Assembly: GCF_000027125.1 (NCBI RefSeq)
Contig: NC_017626.1
Source of the DNA: Escherichia coli 042
Lineage (GTDB): Bacteria; Pseudomonadota; Gammaproteobacteria; Enterobacterales; Enterobacteriaceae
DNA length: 64,000 nucleotides
Direction: 5' to 3' (one strand)
Numbering within the stretch: position 1 is the stretch's first letter; the number at the start of each line of letters is the position of its first letter. The notes under the pieces were generated by a model. That model saw nothing but the letters and a program-made list of their open reading frames with translations. It searched no databases and was not told the DNA's origin. The position numbers and the translations under genes were made by a program. This document shows, in pieces, positions 33,516 to 64,000 of the stretch.

Positions 33516-33633
33516 CAAATTACTTATTGAGCGGTGTAAACAACGCCGCTTATTCATTTGATAAATCAAAATTAACCCACATTATTATCTCCAGTATCTA
33601 ATCCTTTCTACAGCTTTCTGGCACAGGACAGCA

Positions 33634-40115: not shown

Positions 40116-40405
40116 GATCGTCTCTGGTTCAGGAAGTATTACAGGCAGTGTTGTGCAAATTTTGCGGATTATCAAATCCTTTTCTTCAACGCTATGTCAT
40201 CGATCTTGTATCACTTTTTTGCCGGAAGTTGTTTGCATTTTCATTGATGTGCAGATATTAGAATTGTCGTAATGTTATATACATGGCGTATTTTATTCTT
40301 ACTGGTTCTACACATGTTAATCGCATCTGATTGATCAGTTCACCTTAATAAGTTTAATAAATCGTACTGCACATAGTACAGTACGATGGTAGCTATATAA
40401 TTGAT

Positions 40406-41044
40406 TTACATGAAGAATGGCTTATCGCCATCAGTCCCGGGTTGATTGATGCCTATATTCTCACCAATGTGTTTCTCAGGTTTATCGATGATATCTGTAA
40501 TTAATGCTGCGACACTCTTACGTGATACGATCGTACCTTTGAATGGTTCATTGCGTGAGGTAAGCTCATAATCAATAATATCTTCATCAGTCAGCCAGGC
40601 AGGGCGAAGAATTGTATATTCCAGTCCAGAAGCCTCAATTGCATCCGCAGCCCTGCGGAATGGTTTTAGGGGCTCACCAATAACTGCATTATTCCATTCG
40701 CCAAATTTTCCTGGAACTTCATCATAAATACCGAGGGAAAGAACAAAGATCAGACGTTTAACATCACAGGCTTTCATCGCAGCGATCACTGAATTTGCCT
40801 GAATATCTAAATCTTCCCCCGTAAGGTTGGCATACACAACATCCTGTCCCTGCATGGCCTGCTTCAGTGCTGCATGATTCAGTACATCCCCCATAATAAT
40901 CTTGCTATTAGTTGGATAGGGTTTGTGGATTTTTGCTGGCTGACGGGCAAATAAAGTTTGTTTAATGGTTTGTTTATCTGCCAGTTGATTAATCACATGG
41001 CGGGCTATCTGACCGCCAGCACCAAGAATCAGTACATTTTTCAT
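40406..41044 (-). CDS. ymjC: NAD(P)-binding (NmrA/SDR-like) protein, apparently intact
   Basis: 212-aa ORF with N-terminal Rossmann motif (ILGAGGQIARHV); assigned by position between mpaA and ycjY. Confidence 0.7.
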   Translation of the reverse strand: MKNVLILGAGGQIARHVINQLADKQTIKQTLFARQPAKIHKPYPTNSKIIMGDVLNHAALKQAMQGQDVVYANLTGEDLDIQANSVIAAMKACDVKRLIFVLSLGIYDEVPGKFGEWNNAVIGEPLKPFRRAADAIEASGLEYTILRPAWLTDEDIIDYELTSRNEPFKGTIVSRKSVAALITDIIDKPEKHIGENIGINQPGTDGDKPFFM

Positions 41045-46605: not shown

Positions 46606-46616
46606 GTAAATAAATA

Positions 46617-46641
46617 TCCTCCGGCATAGCCGGAGGTTTTT
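46617..46641 (+). terminator. Rho-independent terminator of ynaJ
   Basis: cctccggc-ata-gccggagg hairpin followed by tttttc. Confidence 0.65.
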
Positions 46642-47320
46642 CAAATGCGCCTATAAGGCTCTCTTACCAGCCGCGCCCTAACAGGCGCACACGATCTGAC
46701 ATTTGCATCCAACTTCGTTACTTACGGCCCGTAAACGGGCTGCCCGGATAGGGAATCGATAACTGCTCTCCCATTTTATCCTCTTCAAGCTGGTGCTTTA
46801 TGTAATCCTGTATCTTCGCCGTGTTCTTACCCACCGTATCGACGTAATACCCTCTGCACCAGAACTCCCTGTTCCTGTATTTGAATTTCAAATCACCAAA
46901 CTGCTCGTAAAGCATCAGACTGCTTTTCCCTTTCAGATATCCCATAAAGCCTGATACGCTCATTTTGGGCGGGATCTCCACAAGCATATGGATATGATCT
47001 GCACAGCATTCAGCTTCCAGAATCCGTACACTTTTCCACTCACACAGCTTTCTCAAAATACAGCCTATTGCTCTACGCTTCTCTCTGTAGAACACCTGTC
47101 TTCGGTATTTTGGCGCAAATACTATGTGATATTTACAGTTCCATCGGGTGTGCGCTAAGCTCTTTTCGTTCCCCATTGGGACCCCCTTTTGATTTCTTGT
47201 TTGACACTTGCAGTTGCCAGACCGCAAGGTGTTTTAACAAATCAAAAGGGGTTTTAATAACTGGCTCAAAGCTGAAAGCTTTCCGGAACCCCCAGCCTAG
47301 CTGGGGGTTTTCTGTGCACA
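46640..47320 (-). mobile_element. IS200-family (IS200/IS605) insertion sequence; boundaries approximate
   Basis: Contains an IS200-type tnpA; left-end hairpins on the IS strand (cccccagctaggctggggg at 47290-47308 and an RBS-sequestering inverted repeat ccccttttgattt / aaatcaaaagggg); lies between the ynaJ and uspE terminators. Confidence 0.8.
46718..47176 (-). CDS. tnpA: IS200-type Y1 (HUH) transposase TnpA
   Basis: 152 aa from MGNEKSLAHTRWNCKYHIVFAPKYRR...; HUH motif (ADHIHML) and catalytic Tyr region (RGYYVDTVG). Confidence 0.9.
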   Translation of the reverse strand: MGNEKSLAHTRWNCKYHIVFAPKYRRQVFYREKRRAIGCILRKLCEWKSVRILEAECCADHIHMLVEIPPKMSVSGFMGYLKGKSSLMLYEQFGDLKFKYRNREFWCRGYYVDTVGKNTAKIQDYIKHQLEEDKMGEQLSIPYPGSPFTGRK

Positions 47321-49941: not shown

Positions 49942-51468
49942 TTAAGACAAACGTGGGTAAATCCCCGGACCTATCGGCAGACCGACAAGATACCACGCCA
50001 GCAACATCAGCAGCCATACCACCAAAAAGATAAGTGGATAGGGCAAAACTAACGAATAGTAAGTACCCAGTTTCGCGTCTGGTTTGTAACGTTGCAGGAA
50101 TCCAAGAAACAGTGGAACAAAAGGAGATACCGGCGCTAAAGGCAATACGGATGAGTCGGCAATACGAAAGAGGATTTGCGCAAATGCCGGGTGAAAGCCA
50201 AGTAGCATAAACATCGGTACGAAAATGGGGGCCAGAATCGACCAGATTGCGGAACCGCTGGCGATAAACATGCATAAGAAAGAGGAAAGCAACGCCAGAC
50301 CGACAAACGCCGGGATGCCGCTAAGCCCTGAACTTTCCAGTATATCGGTCAGCCCCACGGCGATGAATTTCCCCATGTTGCTCCAGTTAAACATGGCGAC
50401 AAACTGGGCGAGGGGAAAAACCATCACGATAAATCCCGCCATCTCTTTCATCGGTTCAATCATTAAATGCGGTAAATCCGCCTGACGTCGAATTGTGCGG
50501 GTAGCGATGCCATAAGCCAGCGAGACCACAAAGAAAAAAAGAATGATCAGTGGCACGATACCTTTAATAAAGGGGGATGGCATCACGGTGTGATTAATCG
50601 GATCGCGCAATATCCCGTTTTCCGGGATCACCATCAGCGCAATCGCAGCAATAAAAAGTAGCGATACGACACCTGCTATGCGTAAACCAAAACGCTGACT
50701 TTCGGTTAATGTCTGCAGTTTCTCATCGCTGTTTCCCTGCCATTGACCTAAACGTGGCTCAATGATTTTGTCGGTTATCAGGCCGCCAACAATCGTCAGT
50801 ACGACTACGGAGCTGGCCATAAAATACCAGTTATCAATTACACTGACGTGCATTTGCGGATTGAACGCAGCCGCAGCCTCCGTGCTGATCCCCGACAGCA
50901 ACACGTCGGTTGTGACAATCAGTAAATTAGCCGTAAAGCCGCAACCTACGCCTGCAATGGCGGCCAGTAAACCTGCAACTGGATGCCTGCCCACCGCCAG
51001 AAAAATCAGCGCACCCATCGGTGGCATGATCACTAACGCCGCATCGGAAGAAATGTGGCTAAAAAAAGCAATAAACAGCACCATATAACTGGCGTAGCGG
51101 GCATTCACATGCGATGCCATTTTAACCATCAACGCTGGCAGTAAGCCGACGCGCTCCGCCAGACCGGCACCTAAAACCAGCGCCAGGATCGCTCCAAGTG
51201 GAGCAAAACCGCTAAAGTTTTTAATAACATTGGGTAAAAACCAGTGTAATACTTCCACACTGAGCAGGTTTTTCACGACCACCGGCGTACCATCGGTCGG
51301 GTTTTTCGCACTGACGCCAAAGGCCGACAAAATTGCTGTCGTCACCATGAGTACGATAATCAAATAGATAAAGAGCAAAAAAGGATGGGGCACCTTGTTA
51401 CCAATTCTTTCGACCCAGCCATAGAGCTTCCCGGATTGGGAGGACGACGGTATGGATGACATACTCAT
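49942..51468 (-). CDS. abgT: p-Aminobenzoyl-glutamate transporter (AbgT family)
   Basis: 508-aa polytopic membrane protein. Confidence 0.9.
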
Positions 51469-51504
51469 GGGCATTCCTCGTTTGTTGTGTTTGCGTTGTT
51501 GTTG

Positions 51505-52950
51505 TTATTTTAAAGGTGACGGTGTCACGTTTTTCGGGATAGGGCAGTGATACGGTTGCGTGTCCGTAACTTGCTGATGCTCTTGTTGGCATTCTTGCAA
51601 TAGCCCTGAATCAATGAAGAGATTAAGTGTGGTTGCTGCTATAGTTTTCGCCGCCAGCAGCATTCCTTTATGAGCAATAGATGTTCGCCCCTGGCTAACC
51701 AGTTGCCATGTATGTAGCGGGGTACCGACGGCAAAACAGGGACTGAAACACTGGGCAACAGGCAGTTTCCAACTGACGTCGCCGACATCAGTTGATGCCG
51801 CAAGCACGTTATCGGTGGCGGCATATGGAGCGACTTCATTCGCCAGTACCGTTTCACGATGACGTAGTGCAAAAGCCTTGCCGTTTTCGCCACCGGTTGC
51901 AGCGATATTATTCAGACTGTTTTGACGATCGTTGAGGGTGAGCGTAGCCTGAATTTGTTTCGCAAAAGCCAGTTCTTCGCAGTTCCATTCCGGGGTACCA
52001 AAATGGGATAGGGCTCGGTACATGGCATTTTCTAAGGTGCGATTCGGGAGATAACTGGAACAGGCTTTGTCGAAGCGGCATTCAACCGTGGTTTCGGTCA
52101 TCAATGCCGCACCTTCGGCGATTTTGGCGACCCGATCATAAATTTGCTGCACATCGGTCATTTCGGGGGCGCGGATAAGATAAAGCACTTCTGCCTGCGC
52201 CTGGACCACGTTGGGCGAGATCCCGCCGCTATCTGTGATGGCATAGTGTACGCGCGCTTTTTCAATAATATGTTCGTTGAGGAAGTTGGTGCCAGTGGTC
52301 ATCAACGTTACGGCATCAAGGGCGCTGCGTCCCAAATGAGGGGAATTCGCGGCATGTGCTGCGATCCCTTTAAAGCACCATGATGCCTGAATGTTTGCCA
52401 GCGTGCGGGTATTGAACATACCGGCAAAGGCTTCCGGGTGCCAGGTGAGTGCCGCATCCACATCATCAAATACCCCCTCGCGGACCATGAACGTTTTACC
52501 CGAGCCGCCTTCTTCGCCAGGACAACCATAAAAGCGCACCGTGCCGCATTGCCCATATTGTTCCAGCCATTTCTTGACGGCTATTGCTGCGGCAAAGGCG
52601 GCGGTTCCCAGCAAATTGTGTCCGCAACCGTGACCATTTTCACCGGGCGTCGCGGATGTAGGTTGCGCGCAACCTGCTTGCTGACTTAAACCTGCCAGGG
52701 CGTCATATTCCCCCAGCAGGGCGATAACCGGTTTGCCTTGACCAAACGAAGCAATAAAGGCATTTGGGATATTGCCTACGTTGCGGGTAACGGTGAAGCC
52801 TGCAGACTCCAGCGCCGAAGCCAGATGCTCCGCTGACCAGAACTCTTCAAAACGTGTTTCTGGATGATCCCAGATTTGATCGGCAATATCGGTATAACGT
52901 TGGCGATCGGCTTCAATCGCATCGTCGATAAAACGATAGATTTCCTGCAT
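51505..52950 (-). CDS. abgB: p-Aminobenzoyl-glutamate hydrolase subunit B (M20 peptidase)
   Basis: 481 aa; M20 metal-ligand motifs. Confidence 0.9.
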   Translation of the reverse strand: MQEIYRFIDDAIEADRQRYTDIADQIWDHPETRFEEFWSAEHLASALESAGFTVTRNVGNIPNAFIASFGQGKPVIALLGEYDALAGLSQQAGCAQPTSATPGENGHGCGHNLLGTAAFAAAIAVKKWLEQYGQCGTVRFYGCPGEEGGSGKTFMVREGVFDDVDAALTWHPEAFAGMFNTRTLANIQASWCFKGIAAHAANSPHLGRSALDAVTLMTTGTNFLNEHIIEKARVHYAITDSGGISPNVVQAQAEVLYLIRAPEMTDVQQIYDRVAKIAEGAALMTETTVECRFDKACSSYLPNRTLENAMYRALSHFGTPEWNCEELAFAKQIQATLTLNDRQNSLNNIAATGGENGKAFALRHRETVLANEVAPYAATDNVLAASTDVGDVSWKLPVAQCFSPCFAVGTPLHTWQLVSQGRTSIAHKGMLLAAKTIAATTLNLFIDSGLLQECQQEHQQVTDTQPYHCPIPKNVTPSPLK

Positions 52951-54260
52951 CAGATACCTCGCGTCCAGGGAAAATTGAGCGCGGTGCGCGCCAGCGTTTC
53001 GACGGCAATAGCGAGAACCTGCTCGTCAAAATCGAATTTTTCGTTGTGATGACCTGCCGCCAGCTGTGTGCCAAACACCATATAGGAGGCTTGCCCTTGA
53101 TGTTGCTGCACGCGGGCCATCATTAATGTGGCATCTTCGGAACCCGCAGGCGCTTCAACACGTTCAATGGCTTGATTGACCCCCGGGACCTGAGCTGCCT
53201 GACTTTGCAACCATGCGACCCATTGCGGCGAAGGAGAACTGGCGGTAGCTGCACCCATCAGACGAGTTTCAACGCCGACACCATACATGGTTGCTGCGCC
53301 CTGAATCGCTTGTTGTGCACGTTCAAAAACATATTGATTAATGACGTCGCTGGCCCCGCGTGTTTCCACTTTCAGCAACGCTGAGGCGGGAACAACATTA
53401 CGACCGCTTCCTGCCTGCATAACGCCCACGTTTACTCTGGAAGCGCCTTCGCTGTGCGGGGCGATTGCATGCAGTGCAAGAGTTGCTTGTGCTGCCGCCA
53501 ACAAGGCATTGTGACCGTCTTCTGGTTTTGCGCCTGCGTGAGCGGCGGTCCCGGTGAAGTGCGCGTCAAATTTGGTGGTTGCCATAAAATTATCACTGCC
53601 GCACACCACGGTGCCCGCAGGTACGCCAGTGCCAATGTGCACGGCAGTAAAATAATCAACATCATCCACTACACCTGCATCGACCATCGCCCGCGCGCCA
53701 CGCGTACCTTCTTCTGCAGGTTGAAAAATCAGTTTGATGACGCCATGTAGTCCGGACTCGAACTGTTTAAGGGTATGCGCCAGCCCAAGTCCAATGGCGG
53801 TATGTCCATCATGACCACAGGCATGCATCATTCCGGCGTTACATGACGCAAAACCGTCGCGGTAGGGGCGATGGCTGACATCCCGTTCTTCACTGAGATC
53901 CAGCGCGTCCATATCGACACGGAAAGCCATCACCGGACCGGGGCGACCGGTATCCAGGGTAGCGACGATGCCAGTGAAACCGCCTTCAAAAGCCGCAATC
54001 CATTGTTCTAGCGCACCCTGTTGACGAGCGCGCTCGAATTCGCGTTGTAGAGTGAATTCATCAGGTAATCCCATCCGGCTACTTTCATTAACTACTTCGC
54101 GGCCCAGCGCCAGTGAATAACCGAGCTGGTGCAATTCTTCCGCAACAAGGGTGGCAGTGCGGAATTCCACCCAGCCAGACTCTGCATAGTGGTGAAAATC
54201 ACGTCGCCAGTGCGATAATTTTGGGGCAAGCGAATTAATAAATTGATTCAAAGACTCCAT
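52950..54260 (-). CDS. abgA: p-Aminobenzoyl-glutamate hydrolase subunit A (M20 peptidase)
   Basis: 436 aa from MESLNQFINSL...; upstream of and coupled to abgB. Confidence 0.9.
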   Translation of the reverse strand: MESLNQFINSLAPKLSHWRRDFHHYAESGWVEFRTATLVAEELHQLGYSLALGREVVNESSRMGLPDEFTLQREFERARQQGALEQWIAAFEGGFTGIVATLDTGRPGPVMAFRVDMDALDLSEERDVSHRPYRDGFASCNAGMMHACGHDGHTAIGLGLAHTLKQFESGLHGVIKLIFQPAEEGTRGARAMVDAGVVDDVDYFTAVHIGTGVPAGTVVCGSDNFMATTKFDAHFTGTAAHAGAKPEDGHNALLAAAQATLALHAIAPHSEGASRVNVGVMQAGSGRNVVPASALLKVETRGASDVINQYVFERAQQAIQGAATMYGVGVETRLMGAATASSPSPQWVAWLQSQAAQVPGVNQAIERVEAPAGSEDATLMMARVQQHQGQASYMVFGTQLAAGHHNEKFDFDEQVLAIAVETLARTALNFPWTRGI

Positions 54261-54435
54261 AACCTTTCCCGTCATCAGTAAAAAGTGTGACCCGGTTCAC
54301 GTAGCGATAGTTTTTACTTATCACTAACTGATTTTTCACAGTTTTAACCGTTCATAAATTACCCTGACACAATCATCTGCATTAAAGTAGATGCCAGTTT
54401 CTTTGGTCTGATAAATAACGGTTATCGGTGGCGTC

Positions 54436-55344
54436 ATGGCTTTTCAGGTAAAAATTCATCAAATTCGGGCTTTTGTTGAAGTGGCTCGTCAGGGCAGCAT
54501 TCGCGGAGCGAGCCGAATGTTGAATATGTCGCAACCGGCACTGAGTAAATCTATTCAGGAGCTGGAAGAAGGGTTGGCGGCACAACTCTTTTTTCGCCGT
54601 AGTAAAGGCGTGACGTTAACTGATGCCGGTGAAAGTTTTTATCAGCACGCCAGTCTTATTCTTGAAGAGCTGCGCGCAGCGCAAGAGGATATTCGCCAAC
54701 GACAAGGGCAACTGGCAGGGCAAATTAATATCGGCATGGGGGCCAGTATTTCCCGCAGTCTGATGCCAGCTGTCATATCTCGTTTTCATCAGCAGCATCC
54801 GCAGGTAAAAGTACGCATTATGGAAGGGCAACTGGTATCGATGATTAATGAATTGCGCCAGGGGGAACTGGATTTCACCATCAATACCTATTATCAGGGA
54901 CCCTACGACCACGAATTTACTTTTGAGAAATTACTGGAAAAGCAATTCGCGATCTTTTGCCGCCCGGGACATCCCGCCATTGGTGCCCGTTCGATCAAAC
55001 AGTTACTGGACTACAGCTGGACAATGCCGACGCCACACGGCAGCTACTACAAACACTTGAGTGAATTGCTTGACGATCAGGCGCAAACGCCACAGGTCGG
55101 CGTAGTCTGCGAGACGTTCTCAGCCTGTATCAGTCTGGTGGCAAAAAGCGATTTTCTCAGCATACTACCTGAAGAAATGGGCTGCGATCCCTTGCACGGA
55201 CAGGGGCTGGTGATGTTGCCGGTTAGCGAAATTTTACCGAAAGCGACCTATTATTTGATTCAGCGGCGTGATAGTCGCCAGACACCACTGACCGCGTCAT
55301 TAATCACGCAATTTCGGCGAGAATGCGGCTATCTGCAAAGTTAA
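54436..55344 (+). CDS. abgR: LysR-type regulator AbgR
   Basis: 302 aa; LysR HTH; divergent from abgA. Confidence 0.9.
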   Translation: MAFQVKIHQIRAFVEVARQGSIRGASRMLNMSQPALSKSIQELEEGLAAQLFFRRSKGVTLTDAGESFYQHASLILEELRAAQEDIRQRQGQLAGQINIGMGASISRSLMPAVISRFHQQHPQVKVRIMEGQLVSMINELRQGELDFTINTYYQGPYDHEFTFEKLLEKQFAIFCRPGHPAIGARSIKQLLDYSWTMPTPHGSYYKHLSELLDDQAQTPQVGVVCETFSACISLVAKSDFLSILPEEMGCDPLHGQGLVMLPVSEILPKATYYLIQRRDSRQTPLTASLITQFRRECGYLQS

Positions 55345-55673
55345 AACTGCATAAAAAAATAGAGTCTGTCGACATCCGCCAGACTCTACAGTACACACAG
55401 CAGTGCATCCGCGTCTTAAATCCGGCATGGTCTCCTCTGCGCCGGTGACTGTGTTATAACGGTTTTAACCTTTAGTTGCCAATTTTCTTCAGTGACAGAT
55501 TTCACGAAAATATAAGTTACATTATTAATATCGTGAATGAATAATCATGCATAAGCATTTTGCTTAAAATATCGGCAATATTTGGAACTTATTACTGGAA
55601 ATTTGGGTAATACGTTGTTGGACCGACCCGGTCTGGTTATCATATCGCGCTCTTAATTGCGGGAGGATGTAAC

Positions 55674-56237
55674 ATGAACCTTGACGACAAATCGCTGTTT
55701 CTTGACGCCATGGAAGATGTCCAGCCGCTGAAACGTGCTACAGATGTCCACTGGCATCCAACGCGTAACCAACGTGCGCCGCAGCGTATCGACACGCTGC
55801 AACTTGATAATTTCCTCACCACTGGATTTCTCGACATCATCCCGCTAAGTCAGCCGCTGGAGTTTCGGCGGGAAGGGTTGCAACATGGGGTGCTGGATAA
55901 GCTGCGCAGTGGTAAATATCCGCAACAGGCGAGCCTGAATCTTTTGCGCCAGCCGGTGGAAGAGTGCCGCAAAATGATGTTCAGTTTCATTCAACAAGCC
56001 ATGGCGGATGGTTTGCGTAATGTGCTGATTATTCATGGTAAAGGGCGGGAAGATAAATCGCATGCCAATATTGTCCGCAGCTATGTGGCGCGCTGGCTGA
56101 CCGAATTTGATGATGTTCAGGCATATTGCACCGCGCTACCGCATCATGGCGGCAGCGGGGCGTGTTACGTCGCACTACGTAAAACGGCGCAGGCGAAGCA
56201 AGAAAACTGGGAGCGCCACGCTAAGCGCAGTCGTTGA
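55674..56237 (+). CDS. smrA: Smr-domain DNA endonuclease SmrA (YdaL)
   Basis: 187 aa with C-terminal Smr domain (LIIHGKG). Confidence 0.88.
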   Translation: MNLDDKSLFLDAMEDVQPLKRATDVHWHPTRNQRAPQRIDTLQLDNFLTTGFLDIIPLSQPLEFRREGLQHGVLDKLRSGKYPQQASLNLLRQPVEECRKMMFSFIQQAMADGLRNVLIIHGKGREDKSHANIVRSYVARWLTEFDDVQAYCTALPHHGGSGACYVALRKTAQAKQENWERHAKRSR

Positions 56238-56257
56238 TCTCGAGACGCATCCGCGGC

Positions 56258-57490
56258 TTATGCCGCCAGCACGCGGTTGCGTCCATCATTTTTCGCCCGA
56301 TACAAAGCATCATCAACGCGTTTAAACAGTTCATCGATGCTTTCATTTCCTTCGTGATGCGCCACACCAATGCTGACGGTAAAGCGTGGTAAGCCCGAAA
56401 TACTCACTTTTGCCACGCTTACGCGGATAGTTTCAGCCAGCGAAAGCGCGGTATCCAGTGGGGTTCTTGGTAGCAATAAGACAAACTCTTCGCCTCCCCA
56501 ACGAAACACCAAATCGCCTTTGCGAGCGCAACTTTCGAGGGGGCGGGCGAGGGCGCATAACACCTCATCACCTTTAGAATGCCCATAGAGATCGTTAATG
56601 TGTTTAAAACGATCGGTGTCGATGAGCAATAAGCTGTAATCCTGAGCGATGGCGAGGTGCTGCATTTGGCCTGGCTCGGTAATGTGGTAAAACTGTCGCC
56701 GATTCAGTAATCCGGTCATCGCGTCATGGTGGGCAGCATGTTCCAGCTGCTCCTCCAGCCGTTTTTGCTCAGTAATATCATGCACAATACATAACATGAG
56801 CTTGTCGCCATAAATTTCAATCGGCCCGGCATAGGTCTGCACATGACGAGTCGAACCATCCGCCAGTTTATGAACAAAATTCAAAGGCTTATGGCCACCG
56901 GGTAAATGCGAAATTTCATGCATGATAGGCATGACGCGTCGCCCGAGCATATTTATTTCCCAGGTATGTTTCTGGCACATCGTTTCATGGTTATAACCAT
57001 AGAAATTGAGCGCGGCGAGGTTAGCATCGACGATTTGTCCATCTCGTGACGGGTCAATCAACAACATTGGTGCAGAGTTAGTCAGAAAAAAGCGCGCATA
57101 AAAACCTTGTTTTTTGCGCTGATAATTTGCCGAGCGACTGGCTTTTAAACCCAGCGTTGCCGGTGCTTCGATACCTTCGAAAATAATCACCGGTTCTGCT
57201 TCTGTCAGCTTTCGCAAAACAAGCCGACAGCTCAATGCTGTTTCCTCTTCATTGCGCTGAACGGTGAGGATTTCGATAATATCGTGTTGGTTTTGCAGAT
57301 CGGAGAGGTATTTTGGCAGTTCTTTTTGTGAGGAGACGGAATAGGGACCGGTTCGTAGCTGACTAAACGTGAGGTCTTGCATCAACAGTCGCGCCGCGCT
57401 ATTGGCATAAATTAACTGTTCCTCAAAGGGCGAAACGATCCAGACAGGACTGGTGAGTAAGTCCAGGGTATTGAAGTTGTGCGTAATCAT
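56258..57490 (-). CDS. dgcM: Diguanylate cyclase DgcM (YdaM), PAS-PAS-GGDEF
   Basis: 410 aa from MITHNFNTLDLL...; GGEEF active-site motif (RWGGEEFVLL). Confidence 0.9.
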   Translation of the reverse strand: MITHNFNTLDLLTSPVWIVSPFEEQLIYANSAARLLMQDLTFSQLRTGPYSVSSQKELPKYLSDLQNQHDIIEILTVQRNEEETALSCRLVLRKLTEAEPVIIFEGIEAPATLGLKASRSANYQRKKQGFYARFFLTNSAPMLLIDPSRDGQIVDANLAALNFYGYNHETMCQKHTWEINMLGRRVMPIMHEISHLPGGHKPLNFVHKLADGSTRHVQTYAGPIEIYGDKLMLCIVHDITEQKRLEEQLEHAAHHDAMTGLLNRRQFYHITEPGQMQHLAIAQDYSLLLIDTDRFKHINDLYGHSKGDEVLCALARPLESCARKGDLVFRWGGEEFVLLLPRTPLDTALSLAETIRVSVAKVSISGLPRFTVSIGVAHHEGNESIDELFKRVDDALYRAKNDGRNRVLAA

Positions 57491-57723
57491 TGAGATCCCG
57501 TTATTTTTATCAATTTTTGTTGCTATCCGATCGCAAAAAAGCCACGTCATATGATCAGATAATTCTGATAATGATAGACGCTATTTAACACTTCACACGG
57601 TTTGTATACGGAAAAGCATTTTGCTTTTTGTATTCAATTTAGACAGAATTTTATTAATCATTTCAGGGTAATGGGGTGATGAGATGTTGCGTAACAGGGC
57701 CAGAAGGCTAGACTACAAAATAA

Positions 57724-58728
<1,005 letters not shown>

Positions 58729-58823: not shown

Positions 58824-58950
58824 GCAGGTGAATGCAACGTCAAGCGATGGGCGTTGCGCTCCATATTGTCTTACTTCCTTTTTTGAATTACTGCATAGCA
58901 CAATTGATTCGTACGACGCCGACTTTGATGAGTCGGCTTTTTTTTGCCTG
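58824..58950 (+). ncRNA. fnrS: FNR-activated Hfq-dependent small RNA FnrS
   Basis: Sequence matches my recollection of FnrS (gcaggtgaatgcaacgtcaagcgatgggcgttgcgctccatattgtcttacttcc...) and ends in the terminator gacgccgactttgatgagtcggcttttttt; lies between zntB and dbpA. Confidence 0.85.
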
Positions 58951-60579: not shown

Positions 60580-60707
60580 TGAAATGTTGAATCGCAGGGT
60601 GCAAGAGTAAACATCTTCTTCGGGATTGCCGGATGCGACGCTGGCCGCGTCTTCTCCGGCCTCCATAAGAGTAGCCCGATAAGCTTGCGCATCGGGCGCT
60701 ATCCGGG

Positions 60708-61643
60708 TTATTTCACTTCAACCACATTCAGTCGTAACTCATCCAACTGATTTTCATCTTCTTCAGGCTGCCAACCCGCCGGTTGTAGAGGGATCTCTTC
60801 GCGATCAAACGCCAGATCACCCCCGTTAACCACTTCAGAACCGTGGGTAATGCCTTTGAAATCGAACAGGTTGGTATCGCACAGATGCGACGGCACCACA
60901 TTCTGCATCGCGCTGAACATCGTCTCGATACGCCCCGGATAACGTTTATCCCAGTCACGCAACATGTCAGCAATCACCTGACGTTGCAGGTTAGGCTGTG
61001 AACCGCACAGGTTGCACGGAATAATCGGGAACGCTTTTGCATCGGCAAAGCGCTGAATATCTTTCTCGCGGCAGTAGGCCAGCGGGCGAATCACGATATG
61101 TTTGCCATCATCGCTCATCAGTTTCGGAGGCATACCTTTCATCTTGCCGCCGTAGAACATATTTAAGAACAACGTTTGCAGGATATCGTCACGATGGTGA
61201 CCCAGCGCGATCTTCGTCGCTCCCAGTTCCGTTGCGGTACGATAAAGGATACCGCGACGAAGACGAGAACACAGTGAGCAAGTGGTTTTGCCCTCCGGAA
61301 TCTTCTCTTTCACGATACCGTAAGTGTTCTCTTCCACAATCTTGTACTCAACGCCCAGCTTTTCAAGATACTCGGGCAGAACGTGTTCCGGGAAGCCCGG
61401 TTGTTTTTGATCGAGGTTGACAGCCACCAGCGAAAAATTGATTGGCGCGCTTTGCTGCAAATTGCGCAGAATTTCCAGCATGGTATAGCTGTCTTTACCC
61501 CCGGAGAGGCAAACCATGATGCGATCGCCTTCTTCAATCATATTGAAGTCAGCAATGGCTTCGCCCACGTTACGACGCAGACGTTTTTGTAATTTGTTCA
61601 GGTTGTATATCTCTTTCTTCGTATTCTTTTGATTTTCTTGCAT
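60708..61643 (-). CDS. ttcA: tRNA 2-thiocytidine synthase TtcA
   Basis: 311 aa; PP-loop (SGGKDS) and CxxC motifs. Confidence 0.92.
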
Positions 61644-61694
61644 TATTTCAGTTCTCTGGTACTAAATGGGGCAAATTGGGGGCAAACTTTGCAA

Positions 61695-62930
61695 CTACGA
61701 TAACCGCGCATTCAACATAGCTACCTGTTCGTCGTTCATGTCATCAATCCACATACCGTAAATTTCATACACCATCTGCGCAGTTTCATGCCCCATCTGG
61801 CTGGCTATAAATGCCGGGTTCGCTCCTGCCGTCAACAGCCAGCAGGCAAAAGTATGTCGCGTATGGTACGGATTACGGCGGCGAATACCAGCACGTTTTA
61901 CTGCTGCATTCCATCTCGCACCCAAACTGCTTACCGAGTAATAAGGTTTCTGTTTTCCGTTACACATCCTGGGCATGAAAACAAAATGCAGTTTGTGCTT
62001 TTCGGTTCTGCCGTACTCCCGATGATAAAAAGTGATTTCGCTTTTGCGATGATGCCCGGTCAGTTTGTATTGCTCCTTCAGTGCTTCAAGAGCTGGCTGT
62101 AGTAGTGTTACCGTCCGGATCCCCGCATTTGTTTTTGGGGGACCGAACATATCAAGTATCGTCAGGTTTCTTCTGACATTCACAATTCCCTTCTCGAAAT
62201 CCACATCCTCCCACGCCAGAGCTGCCAGTTCCCCGTGACGAAGCCCGGAGTAAACGGCAAATTTCCACAAGTTCTGGCTCTGTCCTTTTTCACTTTCCAT
62301 TAATGCATTGAATTCTGTTTTAGATAACGGATCAGGCTTTATTCTGTTTCGCTGTAATTTTTTTACTCCTTCAAATGGTTTGGTTGATATAAATCCCGAC
62401 TGATACGCAAAACGTAACAACGAACAGAGCAGGGCGATATAGTTATCAACTGTGCGCACGGTTCTTCCTTTTTTGTTGGATCTTGGATTATCTAGGTAAA
62501 GTGTTTCTCCATGCAGCAGTTCATTCCGGTAGTTTAAGATATCGCTATAACGAATATGTGATATTGGGGTACTCTCACAAATTATTATCCTGAGTGTTTT
62601 TAATTGTGATTTCGTTTTCTTCATTGTGTTTGTTGTTAACTCTGTCTCTTTAATTTTTGTCCAGATATCACAAAGCTCCCCGAACGTTTTTATGACCCTC
62701 GTTGTCACCATTTTTGCCCCAGTGCTGGACTGGGGAAAACGTCTTAAATACTCAAATTCACCGGAGTTGATTTCATGAACTATCAACGCTCTTAAATTCC
62801 CGGCCTTTTTAATGTTACTGTTAGTAACCTCCCAGCCTTTCAATGTTTCCCGACATCGTTTTCCTCGAAACATGAACCAGATGCGAATGTATTTACCTCG
62901 AATCTCGACACCTGTTGGTAATTTAGACAT
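61695..62930 (-). CDS. intR: Prophage tyrosine integrase
   Basis: 411 aa; tyrosine recombinase C-terminal catalytic region (HTRHTFACWLL...GHET); AT-rich codon usage. Confidence 0.9.
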   Translation of the reverse strand: MSKLPTGVEIRGKYIRIWFMFRGKRCRETLKGWEVTNSNIKKAGNLRALIVHEINSGEFEYLRRFPQSSTGAKMVTTRVIKTFGELCDIWTKIKETELTTNTMKKTKSQLKTLRIIICESTPISHIRYSDILNYRNELLHGETLYLDNPRSNKKGRTVRTVDNYIALLCSLLRFAYQSGFISTKPFEGVKKLQRNRIKPDPLSKTEFNALMESEKGQSQNLWKFAVYSGLRHGELAALAWEDVDFEKGIVNVRRNLTILDMFGPPKTNAGIRTVTLLQPALEALKEQYKLTGHHRKSEITFYHREYGRTEKHKLHFVFMPRMCNGKQKPYYSVSSLGARWNAAVKRAGIRRRNPYHTRHTFACWLLTAGANPAFIASQMGHETAQMVYEIYGMWIDDMNDEQVAMLNARLS

Positions 62931-62931
62931 A

Positions 62932-63147
62932 TCATGAGTCTTTGATAAACTGATTTATCTTTGGATAGTTGTACCAGATAATCCCTCGCTTACTGTCTGG
63001 TTTCCCTAAAGGAGATACTCGTTTGAAGTGGAAGCCTTCCTCCCAACAGTTCTGACGGTATGCTTCAATTTGTCTGGCCCCCAGACCAGTGCGAAGCATC
63101 AGGCCGTATTCAACCATCCACTCTTCATTAAAGATTACTTGTGCCAT
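62932..63147 (-). CDS. xisR: Prophage excisionase
   Basis: About 71 aa from [15 protein letters not shown]... directly upstream of the integrase; start uncertain (ORF extends to 63171). Confidence 0.75.
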
Positions 63148-63246
63148 CGCATCACCTCTGGCAGGCGCCAATGTTAGACTGAAATTGACGCCCGATGTTG
63201 ATTATTAATAATCAGCTATGAAGTTTTAATTTGAATACAATGCAAT

Positions 63247-63435
63247 TCACGACGACTGAAGTTTCTCGCAATTAAAATTTATCAGTTTTACTTTCTGCTC
63301 TCTGGAAACGCCTGCTTCTTTTTTACCTGAGAGCATTTTTTCGCATTCTGATTTGGTTAATTTTGTTTTTGAGTACCTTGTCCAGTTAGTAGGAGTGCCA
63401 CCTTCCTTTTCAATAGTGGCGGTAATTTTATACAT
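63247..63435 (-). CDS. ydaC: Rac prophage protein YdaC/RcbA-like
   Basis: 62 aa from MYKITATIEKEGGTPTNWTRYSK...; assigned by position. Confidence 0.6.
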   Translation of the reverse strand: MYKITATIEKEGGTPTNWTRYSKTKLTKSECEKMLSGKKEAGVSREQKVKLINFNCEKLQSS

Positions 63436-63622
63436 GAACACCTCCATTATTATTTCCAGTGGTTCGTTTATTCCATCGTTCGAGTGCTTCTTTTTCACTT
63501 CCACCATAGCCGGTTCGGGATTCGCATCCGTTACACTTCGCGCGGTAATATCCTGAAATGGCTTTCACCGTTACTGATGGACAACCACAAAAAGGGCATG
63601 GTTTGACTTTTTCATACCGCAT
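63428..63622 (-). CDS. ralR: Restriction-alleviation / type I toxin protein RalR (Lar family)
   Basis: 64 aa from MRYEKVKPCPFCGCPSVTV...; zinc-ribbon CPFCG...CNGC typical of the Lar family; overlaps ydaC by 8 bp. Confidence 0.7.
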   Translation of the reverse strand: MRYEKVKPCPFCGCPSVTVKAISGYYRAKCNGCESRTGYGGSEKEALERWNKRTTGNNNGGVHV

Positions 63623-63685
63623 TGTCTTTTCTCTCATAAAATAAAATTTTGTGATGGCGGTGAGGCTACACCGCCAAAGTCAATA

Positions 63686-63999
63686 TCAGGAGCCGATATA
63701 TTCTGGTTTCATATCTGTCAGTGTCGTTTTATACGCCTCATATAATTCACCCAGATGTGGCCGGGCAGCATTCAGCGTATTTTCCAGAGCAGTAAATTTT
63801 TGTTCTGCTTCTGGATCACCTGATGAAGGAAGGTCATTTATCATCTTCTCGATACTGGCAATAGCATTGAGACGGTGATGACGCCGAACCACTTTTCCTT
63901 TAAGCTCGGCAAAGAATTCGCCGATCTGGTTTTTCTGATCCTCTATCTCTTGGCGTAATGCAGTGGTTTCCTCAGTCGTGGCCGCGCTTTCGACACGCT
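63686..63999 (-). CDS. 3' end of a prophage gene, probably recT-like recombinase (truncated by window end)
   Basis: Minus-strand frame open to the window edge, ending ...TLTDMKPEYIGS; identity inferred only from position after ralR. Confidence 0.4.
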   Translation of the reverse strand, partial: RVESAATTEETTALRQEIEDQKNQIGEFFAELKGKVVRRHHRLNAIASIEKMINDLPSSGDPEAEQKFTALENTLNAARPHLGELYEAYKTTLTDMKPEYIGS

Positions 64000-64000
64000 G

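Follow-up and report, generated by a model that had tools for sequence, protein, structure and literature searches.

The stretch of DNA described here, 64,000 nucleotides (nt) of the Escherichia coli 042 chromosome (the window), ends within a Rac-type lambdoid prophage. There is very little room for doubt that positions 61594-64000 are the attL junction and the left (recombination and early) arm of this prophage, inserted in the 5' end of the gene ttcA; the identification stands on sequence identities, on the att architecture seen in a three-way comparison, and on the presence of the small RNA (sRNA) RalA and its pairing with the toxin gene ralR. On the minus strand the order is ttcA, intR, xisR, ydaC (or rcbA), ralR, and last a RecT-like gene of which the window holds the 3' end, and the window is colinear with the dbpA-ttcA-intR-xisR-rcbA-ralR region of E. 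coli K-12 at 97.5% identity. The initial annotation, made from the letters alone, had placed an integrase, an excisionase, a ydaC-like protein and a Lar/RalR-family protein in the left arm, and curated hidden Markov models together with Pfam agree with it. From what has been published on K-12, this arm would be expected to be active in recombination, to have its excision controlled, and to encode a DNase and an Hfq-dependent antitoxin. The features are the following.

60708-61643, minus strand: ttcA open reading frame, 311 amino acids (aa), start codon at 61643-61641
60708-61593, minus strand: host-derived body of ttcA, codons 18-311 and the stop, plus the last base of codon 17
61594-61608: att core, 15 bp, ATACAACCTGAACAA on the ttcA sense strand
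61609-61643, minus strand: 5' end of ttcA contributed by the phage, codons 1-12
61644-61694: phage P' arm from the ttcA start to the int stop, a 51-bp spacer with two tandem TTTGCCCC motifs
61695-62930, minus strand: intR, lambda-Int-type tyrosine integrase, 411 aa, intact
62932-63147, minus strand: xisR (ydaQ), excisionase, 71 aa, its stop one base from the int start
63148-63246: xisR-ydaC intergenic region with divergent promoter-like sites
63247-63435, minus strand: ydaC (rcbA; DUF1187), 62 aa, ATG at 63435, end at 63247
63251-63429, plus strand: sRNA RalA, the antitoxin, 179 nt, on the strand opposite to ydaC and reaching to the ralR stop codon
63428-63622, minus strand: ralR, type I toxin, Lar-family zinc-ribbon DNase, 64 aa
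63686-64000, minus strand: 3' end of a RecT-like single-strand annealing protein gene, last 104 codons, extending past the window end

Where does the 5' end of ttcA come from? In the K-12 annotation the Rac boundary lies 50 nt inside ttcA, and the displaced 5' fragment, 51 nt long, is listed at the right end as the pseudogene ttcC; that the phage supplies the 5' end of the gene, with four amino acid changes, was shown experimentally in K-12 (Liu et al. 2015, PMC4632033). A hypothetical empty attB was built by joining both K-12 Rac flanks across their shared 26-bp core. Many genomes have this rebuilt site without interruption and with 100% identity; in ATCC 8739, for example, uspF comes right after ttcA. 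At least 80% of the rebuilt site is covered at one place in 2486 of 5426 complete E. coli genomes. About a third of the same genomes (1824) carry at least 80% of window positions 60700-64000. The att sites were compared in a six-way alignment of the window attL, attL and attR of strain RM11911, attL and attR of K-12, and attB of ATCC 8739. From ATACAACCTGAACAA onward the window ttcA is the empty-site gene, 12 of its first 35 nt differ, and the sequences before the ATG are unrelated. At the protein level, 6 of the first 12 residues of TtcA depart from the form MSQNQEISKKEQ of ATCC 8739 and other empty sites, and the K-12 N-terminus, MQENQQITKKEQ, shows four changes from it, reproducing the published count (PMC4632033). 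The window-type 5' end is identical in the attL of RM11911 and of the phage Rac-SA53, and the phage-supplied N-termini of TtcA fall into at least three alleles, namely the window type, the strain 135 type and the K-12 type.

Because the empty-site strains have a different ttcA 5' end, the prophage supplies the start codon, about 12 codons and all the upstream signals; judged by the alignment, no fewer than 35 nt at the start of ttcA, and all the sequence before them, are of phage origin. RM11911, the nearest relative with an identical attL, has a 49-kb prophage that ends in a ttcC-type attR beside uspF, and a ttcC-type fragment beside uspF would be expected to carry ATGTCGCAAAATCAAGAAATTAGTAAGAAAGAACAATACAACCTGAACAAGTAAGGGC. 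The initial annotation had put the integrase stop (61695) about 50 bp from the ttcA start (61643), in line with the 51-bp spacer, and had let the prophage abut the N-terminal coding region; this holds in outline, but the boundary lies inside ttcA, at 61594-61608, and not at the int stop. Its presumption that the prophage supplies the 5' end is borne out, and the identical end that it had considered for prophage-free strains is not the one that ATCC 8739 and the other empty sites carry. TtcA scores 513 bits against the NCBIfam equivalog cut-off of 272, is identical to the K-12 protein at 307 of 311 positions, and has the PP-loop SGGKDS at residues 47-52 and the CSLC/CNLC motifs. As for what this means to the cell, a conserved tRNA-thiolation gene has in lysogens a phage-derived start codon, first 12 codons and upstream signals, in at least three allelic forms, and its regulation may differ between lysogens and cured strains.

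The core itself deserves attention. A K-12-style 26-bp core corresponds to 61594-61619, of which 23 positions are identical in the window; at the three mismatches the window attL reads GAGATA, where K-12 and all the attR and attB copies read GAACAA. Accordingly, attL and attR of RM11911 share only 15 uninterrupted bases (61594-61608), versus 26 in the K-12 style. Since the uninterrupted identity is only 15 bp long, strand exchange in the attL lineage of the window and RM11911 must, on the evidence of this alignment, fall within 61594-61608.

Outside the core, the motif TTTGCCCC occurs twice in the P' arm, at 61668-61675 and 61679-61686 on the minus strand with an 11-nt spacing, and such a pair was seen in 2 of 300 shuffled sequences. 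The same motif is present in the conserved P arm of about 205 nt at attR, in three exact copies in K-12 and two in RM11911, plus degenerate ones; the K-12 cluster was matched by none of 300 shuffles, so that the motif clusters beyond chance. Because the repeats stand on both att arms and IntR has an arm-binding domain, they are good candidates for IntR arm-type sites, although their binding is inferred from the sequence. A longer pattern, AATTTGCCCC with at most one mismatch, proved too strict and missed the P-arm copies that the shorter TTTGCCCC recovered. Binding of XisR to attR has been published (PMC4632033).

The recombination enzymes are close to those of K-12. IntR is identical to K-12 IntR at 405 of 411 positions and has the layout of a lambda-Int-type (heterobivalent) integrase, i.e., an N-terminal arm-binding domain and a C-terminal catalytic domain with Arg, His-x-Arg, His and Tyr motifs: Pfam finds Arm-DNA-bind_2 (PF12167) at residues 5-69 (91.6 bits), a SAM-like domain, and Phage_integrase (PF00589) at residues 205-391 (81.5 bits). 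The catalytic motifs GLRHGE, HTRHT and GHETAQMVYEIY (GH...Y) are present, and all six substitutions lie outside them. XisR matches its K-12 counterpart at 70 of 71 positions and the Pfam putative excisionase family DUF1233 (72 bits); its function as an excisionase was demonstrated in K-12 (Liu et al. 2015, PMC4632033).

How might the junction have formed? The crossover would be made by IntR between attP on the phage and an attB that occupies codons 12-17 of ttcA. The attP bears an imitation of the ttcA start, with an ATG, about 12 codons 66% identical to those of the host, and upstream sequence of its own. After integration ttcA is therefore still full-length, but it begins with 12 codons of phage DNA and takes its expression signals from the phage; the host's own promoter and 5' end come to lie at the far end of the prophage, where K-12 has ttcC. 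XisR together with IntR would reverse the event.

This arrangement has well-known parallels. In the Int/Xis attP system of phage lambda, the integrase has an arm-binding domain, arm motifs are repeated on either side of a short core, and the gene for the excisionase lies beside int. Prophages that rebuild their target gene are also familiar: phage 21 and e14 insert in icd, and a phage copy of the gene end keeps the gene intact. The difference is that they replace the 3' end, whereas here it is the 5' end, with its start codon and presumably its promoter.

The second subject of this analysis is the toxin-antitoxin pair. RalR scores 163 bits with the equivalog NF007260 (cut-off 113) and 55.3 bits with TIGR03655 (cut-off 39.6), the model of the Lar restriction-alleviation family (PF14354). 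It is identical to the K-12 protein at 62 of 64 positions, the two changes being N-terminal (D4E and N5K); the zinc-ribbon cysteines 9, 12, 30 and 33 are present, as is cysteine 14, and residues 14, 37, 39, 49, 51 and 52, at which mutations reduce toxicity (PMC4041452), are the same as in K-12. The initial annotation had proposed a search for RalA next to ralR, and the sRNA is there in complete form at 63251-63429 on the plus strand: the Rfam model RF02694 matches with 215.4 bits (gathering threshold 170) over its positions 1-179 of 179. Seven of the 179 nt differ from K-12, none of them in the 16-mer that pairs with ralR. The 5' end, terminator and length of RalA agree with primer extension and prediction in PMC4041452; the terminator has a 5-bp GC-rich stem, a 14-nt loop and a U tail, and was missed by a simple terminator scan. 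With regard to promoters, the xisR-ydaC intergenic region holds a plus-strand promoter-like site, TTGACG-16-AATAAT, at 63185-63212 and a minus-strand one at 63229-63201, upstream of xisR. The consensus scan is weak (6 sites versus 4.7 expected in shuffles, i.e., chance level), and it is uncertain that the plus-strand site drives RalA, since 39 nt separate the end of this site from the mapped 5' end of the sRNA.

The pairing element is formed by RalA nt 63-78 (63313-63328, TGCTTCTTTTTTACCT) and ralR 63485-63500 (AAGTGAAAAAGAAGCA, codons G-S-E-K-E-A). The duplex consists of 11 contiguous Watson-Crick pairs, one G:U, two more pairs, a mismatch and a final pair. Natural variation was sampled from 80 IMG/VR loci carrying RalR, which reduce to 36 distinct ralR-ydaC sequences, and the pairing core is kept in 34 of these 36, in one of them because a change in ralR (A>T) is compensated by one in RalA (T>A). 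Covariation in the RalA structure is weak: 95% of the cells are canonical, the stems are no poorer in variable positions than the rest, and a single pair is compensatory. RNAduplex run on the whole of RalA against the whole of ralR returned a long, uninformative duplex, and direct complementarity was used instead. In mechanistic terms, RalR would act as a DNase toxin and RalA would block its translation via the 16-nt pairing; DNase activity and Hfq-dependent repression by RalA were shown for the K-12 allele only (PMC4041452). One IMG/VR variant has an in-frame 12-nt deletion in ydaC (window 63309-63320) that removes the first 8 nt of the 16-nt element of RalA; with its ralR intact it would be, as read from its sequence, a ralR without effective RalA pairing.

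Another intriguing question is whether ydaC, to which RalA is antisense, is a gene at all. The ydaC and ralR frames overlap by exactly 8 nt, ATGTATAA at 63428-63435, with the ydaC ATG inside the CAT-GTA-TAA of ralR; the bases thus confirm the 8-bp overlap reported in the initial annotation. YdaC scores 138 bits with NF007283 (cut-off 92) and 130 bits with DUF1187 (PF06688), and a GGAGG Shine-Dalgarno sequence lies 6 nt 5' of its ATG. It is identical to the K-12 protein at 61 of 62 positions, with a length of 62 aa here versus 69 aa in K-12. The 62-aa form, which ends at a TGA stop, is found in 30 of the 36 distinct natural sequences, and the 69-aa form of K-12, with AGA for TGA, is in the minority; going by these sequences, the length in the K-12 reference annotation is atypical.

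Variation within the reading frame is more telling. The 178 nt of ydaC outside ralR hold 43 variant alleles, 28 of them synonymous versus 11.4 expected, a count reached in none of 5000 permutations; the remaining five frames give 4-21 synonymous alleles. The sole indel in ydaC among the 36 sequences is the in-frame 12-nt deletion. A protein search with YdaC returned DUF1187 proteins only, the most divergent 62-67% identical, one of them from Klebsiella oxytoca. Compared with these homologs, synonymous differences (pS) are 0.6-0.9, i.e., saturated, nonsynonymous differences (pN) are about 0.2, and dN/dS is 0.12-0.20 where computable. The divergent homologs sit in prophage early-left regions. 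One belongs to a ttcA-integrated element with a RalR 72% identical; the other three have no RalR within 4 kb, and their ydaC follows a Dam-type methylase gene or unrelated small genes. The RalA model reaches only 24-37 bits at the divergent loci, and at the RalR-bearing one no complementary run of at least 8 nt exists between the ydaC antisense strand and ralR. We conclude from these patterns of variation that ydaC is under purifying selection at the protein level and predates the pairing of RalA with ralR.

This conclusion, drawn from comparison of sequences, is in tension with the published claim that ydaC is not translated (PMC4041452). In that work (Guo et al. 2014) His-tagged YdaC was undetected, and mutations of the ydaC start and stop left the antitoxin activity intact. 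The mutants mean that the YdaC protein is not the antitoxin; that ydaC is untranslated does not follow. On balance, ydaC is probably translated and selectively maintained, older than, and independent of, RalR/RalA, and RalA would be a recent antisense RNA that arose within ydaC in the E. coli Rac clade, via a chance direct repeat shared by ydaC and ralR (...AAAAAGAAGCA). A real ydaC bears on how the RalR/RalA locus is read, and also on the double-strand-break phenotype behind the name rcbA. The AlphaFold model of YdaC (pLDDT 80) is a beta-beta-alpha-beta fold, and a fold search of the Protein Data Bank (PDB) gave nothing significant, the best match being the phage p56 UDG inhibitor at E = 0.75. 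Nothing further was found in the literature consulted on rcbA/ydaC translation or on Rac-SA53.

The more distant ttcA-integrated Rac-type element mentioned above for its 72% identical RalR (L089/L090; JGI 3300015157 contig, Logan SRR6795043) has the order ExoVIII-RecT-DUF7740-Lar (61 aa)-DUF1187-138 aa gene-Xis-Int-ttcA-dbpA. No RalA-type complementarity is detectable in it, and its ydaC and ralR do not overlap.

Beyond ralR the likeness to K-12 ends. BLAST similarity stops at 63676, a mosaic breakpoint, so that the label "Rac-type" given in the initial annotation applies from attL through ralR and no further; the next gene is of a different RecT-like family. Its visible part is 100% identical to the C-terminus of WP_021529594 of RM11911, a 362-aa "RecT family recombinase" that shows no BLASTP similarity to K-12 RecT (phrog_561 versus phrog_148). 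This 362-aa type of annealing protein (L002, 22987-24075) is hit by no NCBIfam model, and its last ~100 residues, the part inside the window, match no family. The K-12-type recT/recE (phrog_148/NF007351) is absent next to ralR in the window, and RM11911 and Rac-SA53 are likewise not K-12-like; a K-12-type recT/recE beside ralR is in practice not a defining feature of Rac-type elements.

The arm as a whole is a patchwork: its attL is that of RM11911, ydaC-ralR is nearest to strain 135, the last gene is nearest to RM11911, and intR is 1.5-2% from both. This is ordinary lambdoid mosaicism. The surrounding chromosome tells a related story. Over 50000-58000 the backbone is 100% identical to E. coli strains 135, ECA64 and CB6837; an origin from Shigella or a cryptic clade, entertained for want of a genome at 99% across the junction, was rejected on account of this identity in the housekeeping part. 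From about 60500 on, individual segments are 0.4-6% different from strain 135, which suggests that the prophage may have been exchanged by recombination together with the flanking ttcA sequence. Over 45.5-60.5 kb strain 135 is almost identical; in ttcA and the arm the difference is 0.4-3%, varying by segment. The host-side 5' half of ttcA is 1.4% different from strain 135, and the dbpA-ttcA intergenic region 6%.

Could the 5' end of ttcA nevertheless be native, with the prophage simply lying upstream of an untouched gene? The full-length, intact open reading frame of normal length (311 aa) invites the idea, but we give it practically no credence, since the empty-site search and the attL/attR/attB alignment already refute it: the empty-site 5' end differs, its upstream region is unrelated, the window-type end recurs unchanged in Rac-type lysogens of different chromosomal backgrounds, and the displaced native end is retained at attR in both K-12 and RM11911. 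Somewhat more can be said for the view that ydaC is no gene but only the template for RalA on the opposite strand, the "ydaC-like protein" being an annotation artefact. RalA does span nearly all of ydaC, and the failure to detect YdaC and the antitoxin-active start and stop mutants of Guo et al. 2014 (PMC4041452) point the same way. Yet those mutants exclude YdaC as the antitoxin and not its translation, and an artefact would explain neither the synonymous excess confined to the ydaC frame nor the low dN/dS at saturated synonymous sites. It fits just as poorly with an in-frame single indel, with a Shine-Dalgarno sequence ahead of the ATG, and with DUF1187 homologs that lack a neighbouring RalR and score so low with the RalA model; we regard it as quite improbable.

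A decayed remnant, like the 23-kb cryptic Rac of K-12 or smaller, whose arm persists by way of the intact ttcA and the addictive RalR/RalA pair, is a more serious contender, and one that we lean against without dismissing. K-12 Rac, which bears exactly this arm, has lost most of the phage (about 60%, PMC4041452), the window stops 2.4 kb into the element, and some of the IMG/VR contigs bearing the arm are short. Against decay stand the five left-arm genes and RalA, all intact and without frameshifts. The annealing-protein allele is moreover that of RM11911, whose 49-kb prophage has replication, lysis, terminase, head, baseplate and tail-fibre genes, and Rac-SA53, with the same arm, was deposited as a complete 52-kb phage genome; none of these points is direct evidence for the strain analysed here. 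The identification as a Rac-type prophage in ttcA has its own points against it. The right end (attR and ttcC) and the remaining prophage lie beyond the window, so that completeness and excision competence are not assessable from it, as the initial annotation had said of the choice between full-length element and remnant. Inspection by eye of the 51-bp spacer revealed no convincing sigma-70 promoter for ttcA, no terminator follows int (the simple scan of 61400-64000 found none), and no complete genome in the collection is at least 99% identical across the junction; the combination of alleles is unsampled, and its pieces each have close relatives.

How does this element compare with those already described? 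Like the cryptic Rac of K-12 (ttcA-intR-xisR-rcbA/ralA-ralR-recT..., with ttcC at the right end), it uses the ttcA site, keeps the order from attL to ralR and has a phage-supplied N-terminus; unlike it, the N-terminus carries six changes instead of four, the core has three mismatches, YdaC is of another length, and another RecT-like family follows ralR. Rac-SA53 (KU052037) is 98.3% identical over 61594-64000, with the same attL type and a similar long RecT-like gene after ralR; it carries LT-IIa and pertussis-like toxin genes and has an annotated attP. The RM11911 prophage shares the identical attL and the long RecT-like gene after ralR, and differs by 1.5-2.9% in intR, xisR and ydaC-ralR. From the RalR/RalA type I system of the literature (Guo et al. 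2014, PMC4041452; RF02694) there is no material difference beyond the two RalR substitutions: toxin, sRNA, orientation, 16-nt pairing, terminator hairpin and RalA length are all present. The Rac-type ttcA junction and RalR/RalA are thus already known (K-12 annotation, RF02694, NF007260, PMC4632033, PMC4041452, GenBank KU052037). Three points go beyond the literature consulted, namely the 15-bp core in the window's attL type, the repeats proposed as arm sites, and the data that mark ydaC as a real gene.

One database entry is puzzling. GenBank PP818812.1, "Actinobacillus phage vB_Apl-pPE4", is 98% identical over the 391 nt of ydaC-ralR and 94.8% over 774 nt into the RecT-like gene, which is odd for a Pasteurellaceae host; it may be an E. 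coli prophage or have a mis-assigned host.

Outside the prophage, the window differs from its relatives at several places. The dbpA-ttcA intergenic region (60580-60707) is hypervariable, with 5-6% mismatches to strain 135, RM11911 and K-12 and 0-2% in the flanking genes; it holds a REP-like palindrome and a weak, sub-threshold naRNA4 match at 60624-60660. At 33534-33621 about 14 kb of K-12 (the ycjM-ycjW sugar operon and ompG) are absent, with about 87 bp in their place. Conversely, about 660 bp at 40245-40906 are missing from K-12 and RM11911; strain 135 has there an intact SDR-family oxidoreductase gene, of which K-12 has only the ymjC/ymjD fragments. At 46616-47320, between ynaJ and uspE, the neighbour of uspF, lies an insertion of about 700 bp relative to K-12 and RM11911. 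It is an IS200C element, annotated at the same place in strain 135, and Rfam STnc490 matches it at 47186-47309 on the minus strand. Finally, known sRNAs are found at their expected positions: McaS at 55351-55446 on the minus strand and FnrS at 58824-58941 on the plus strand.

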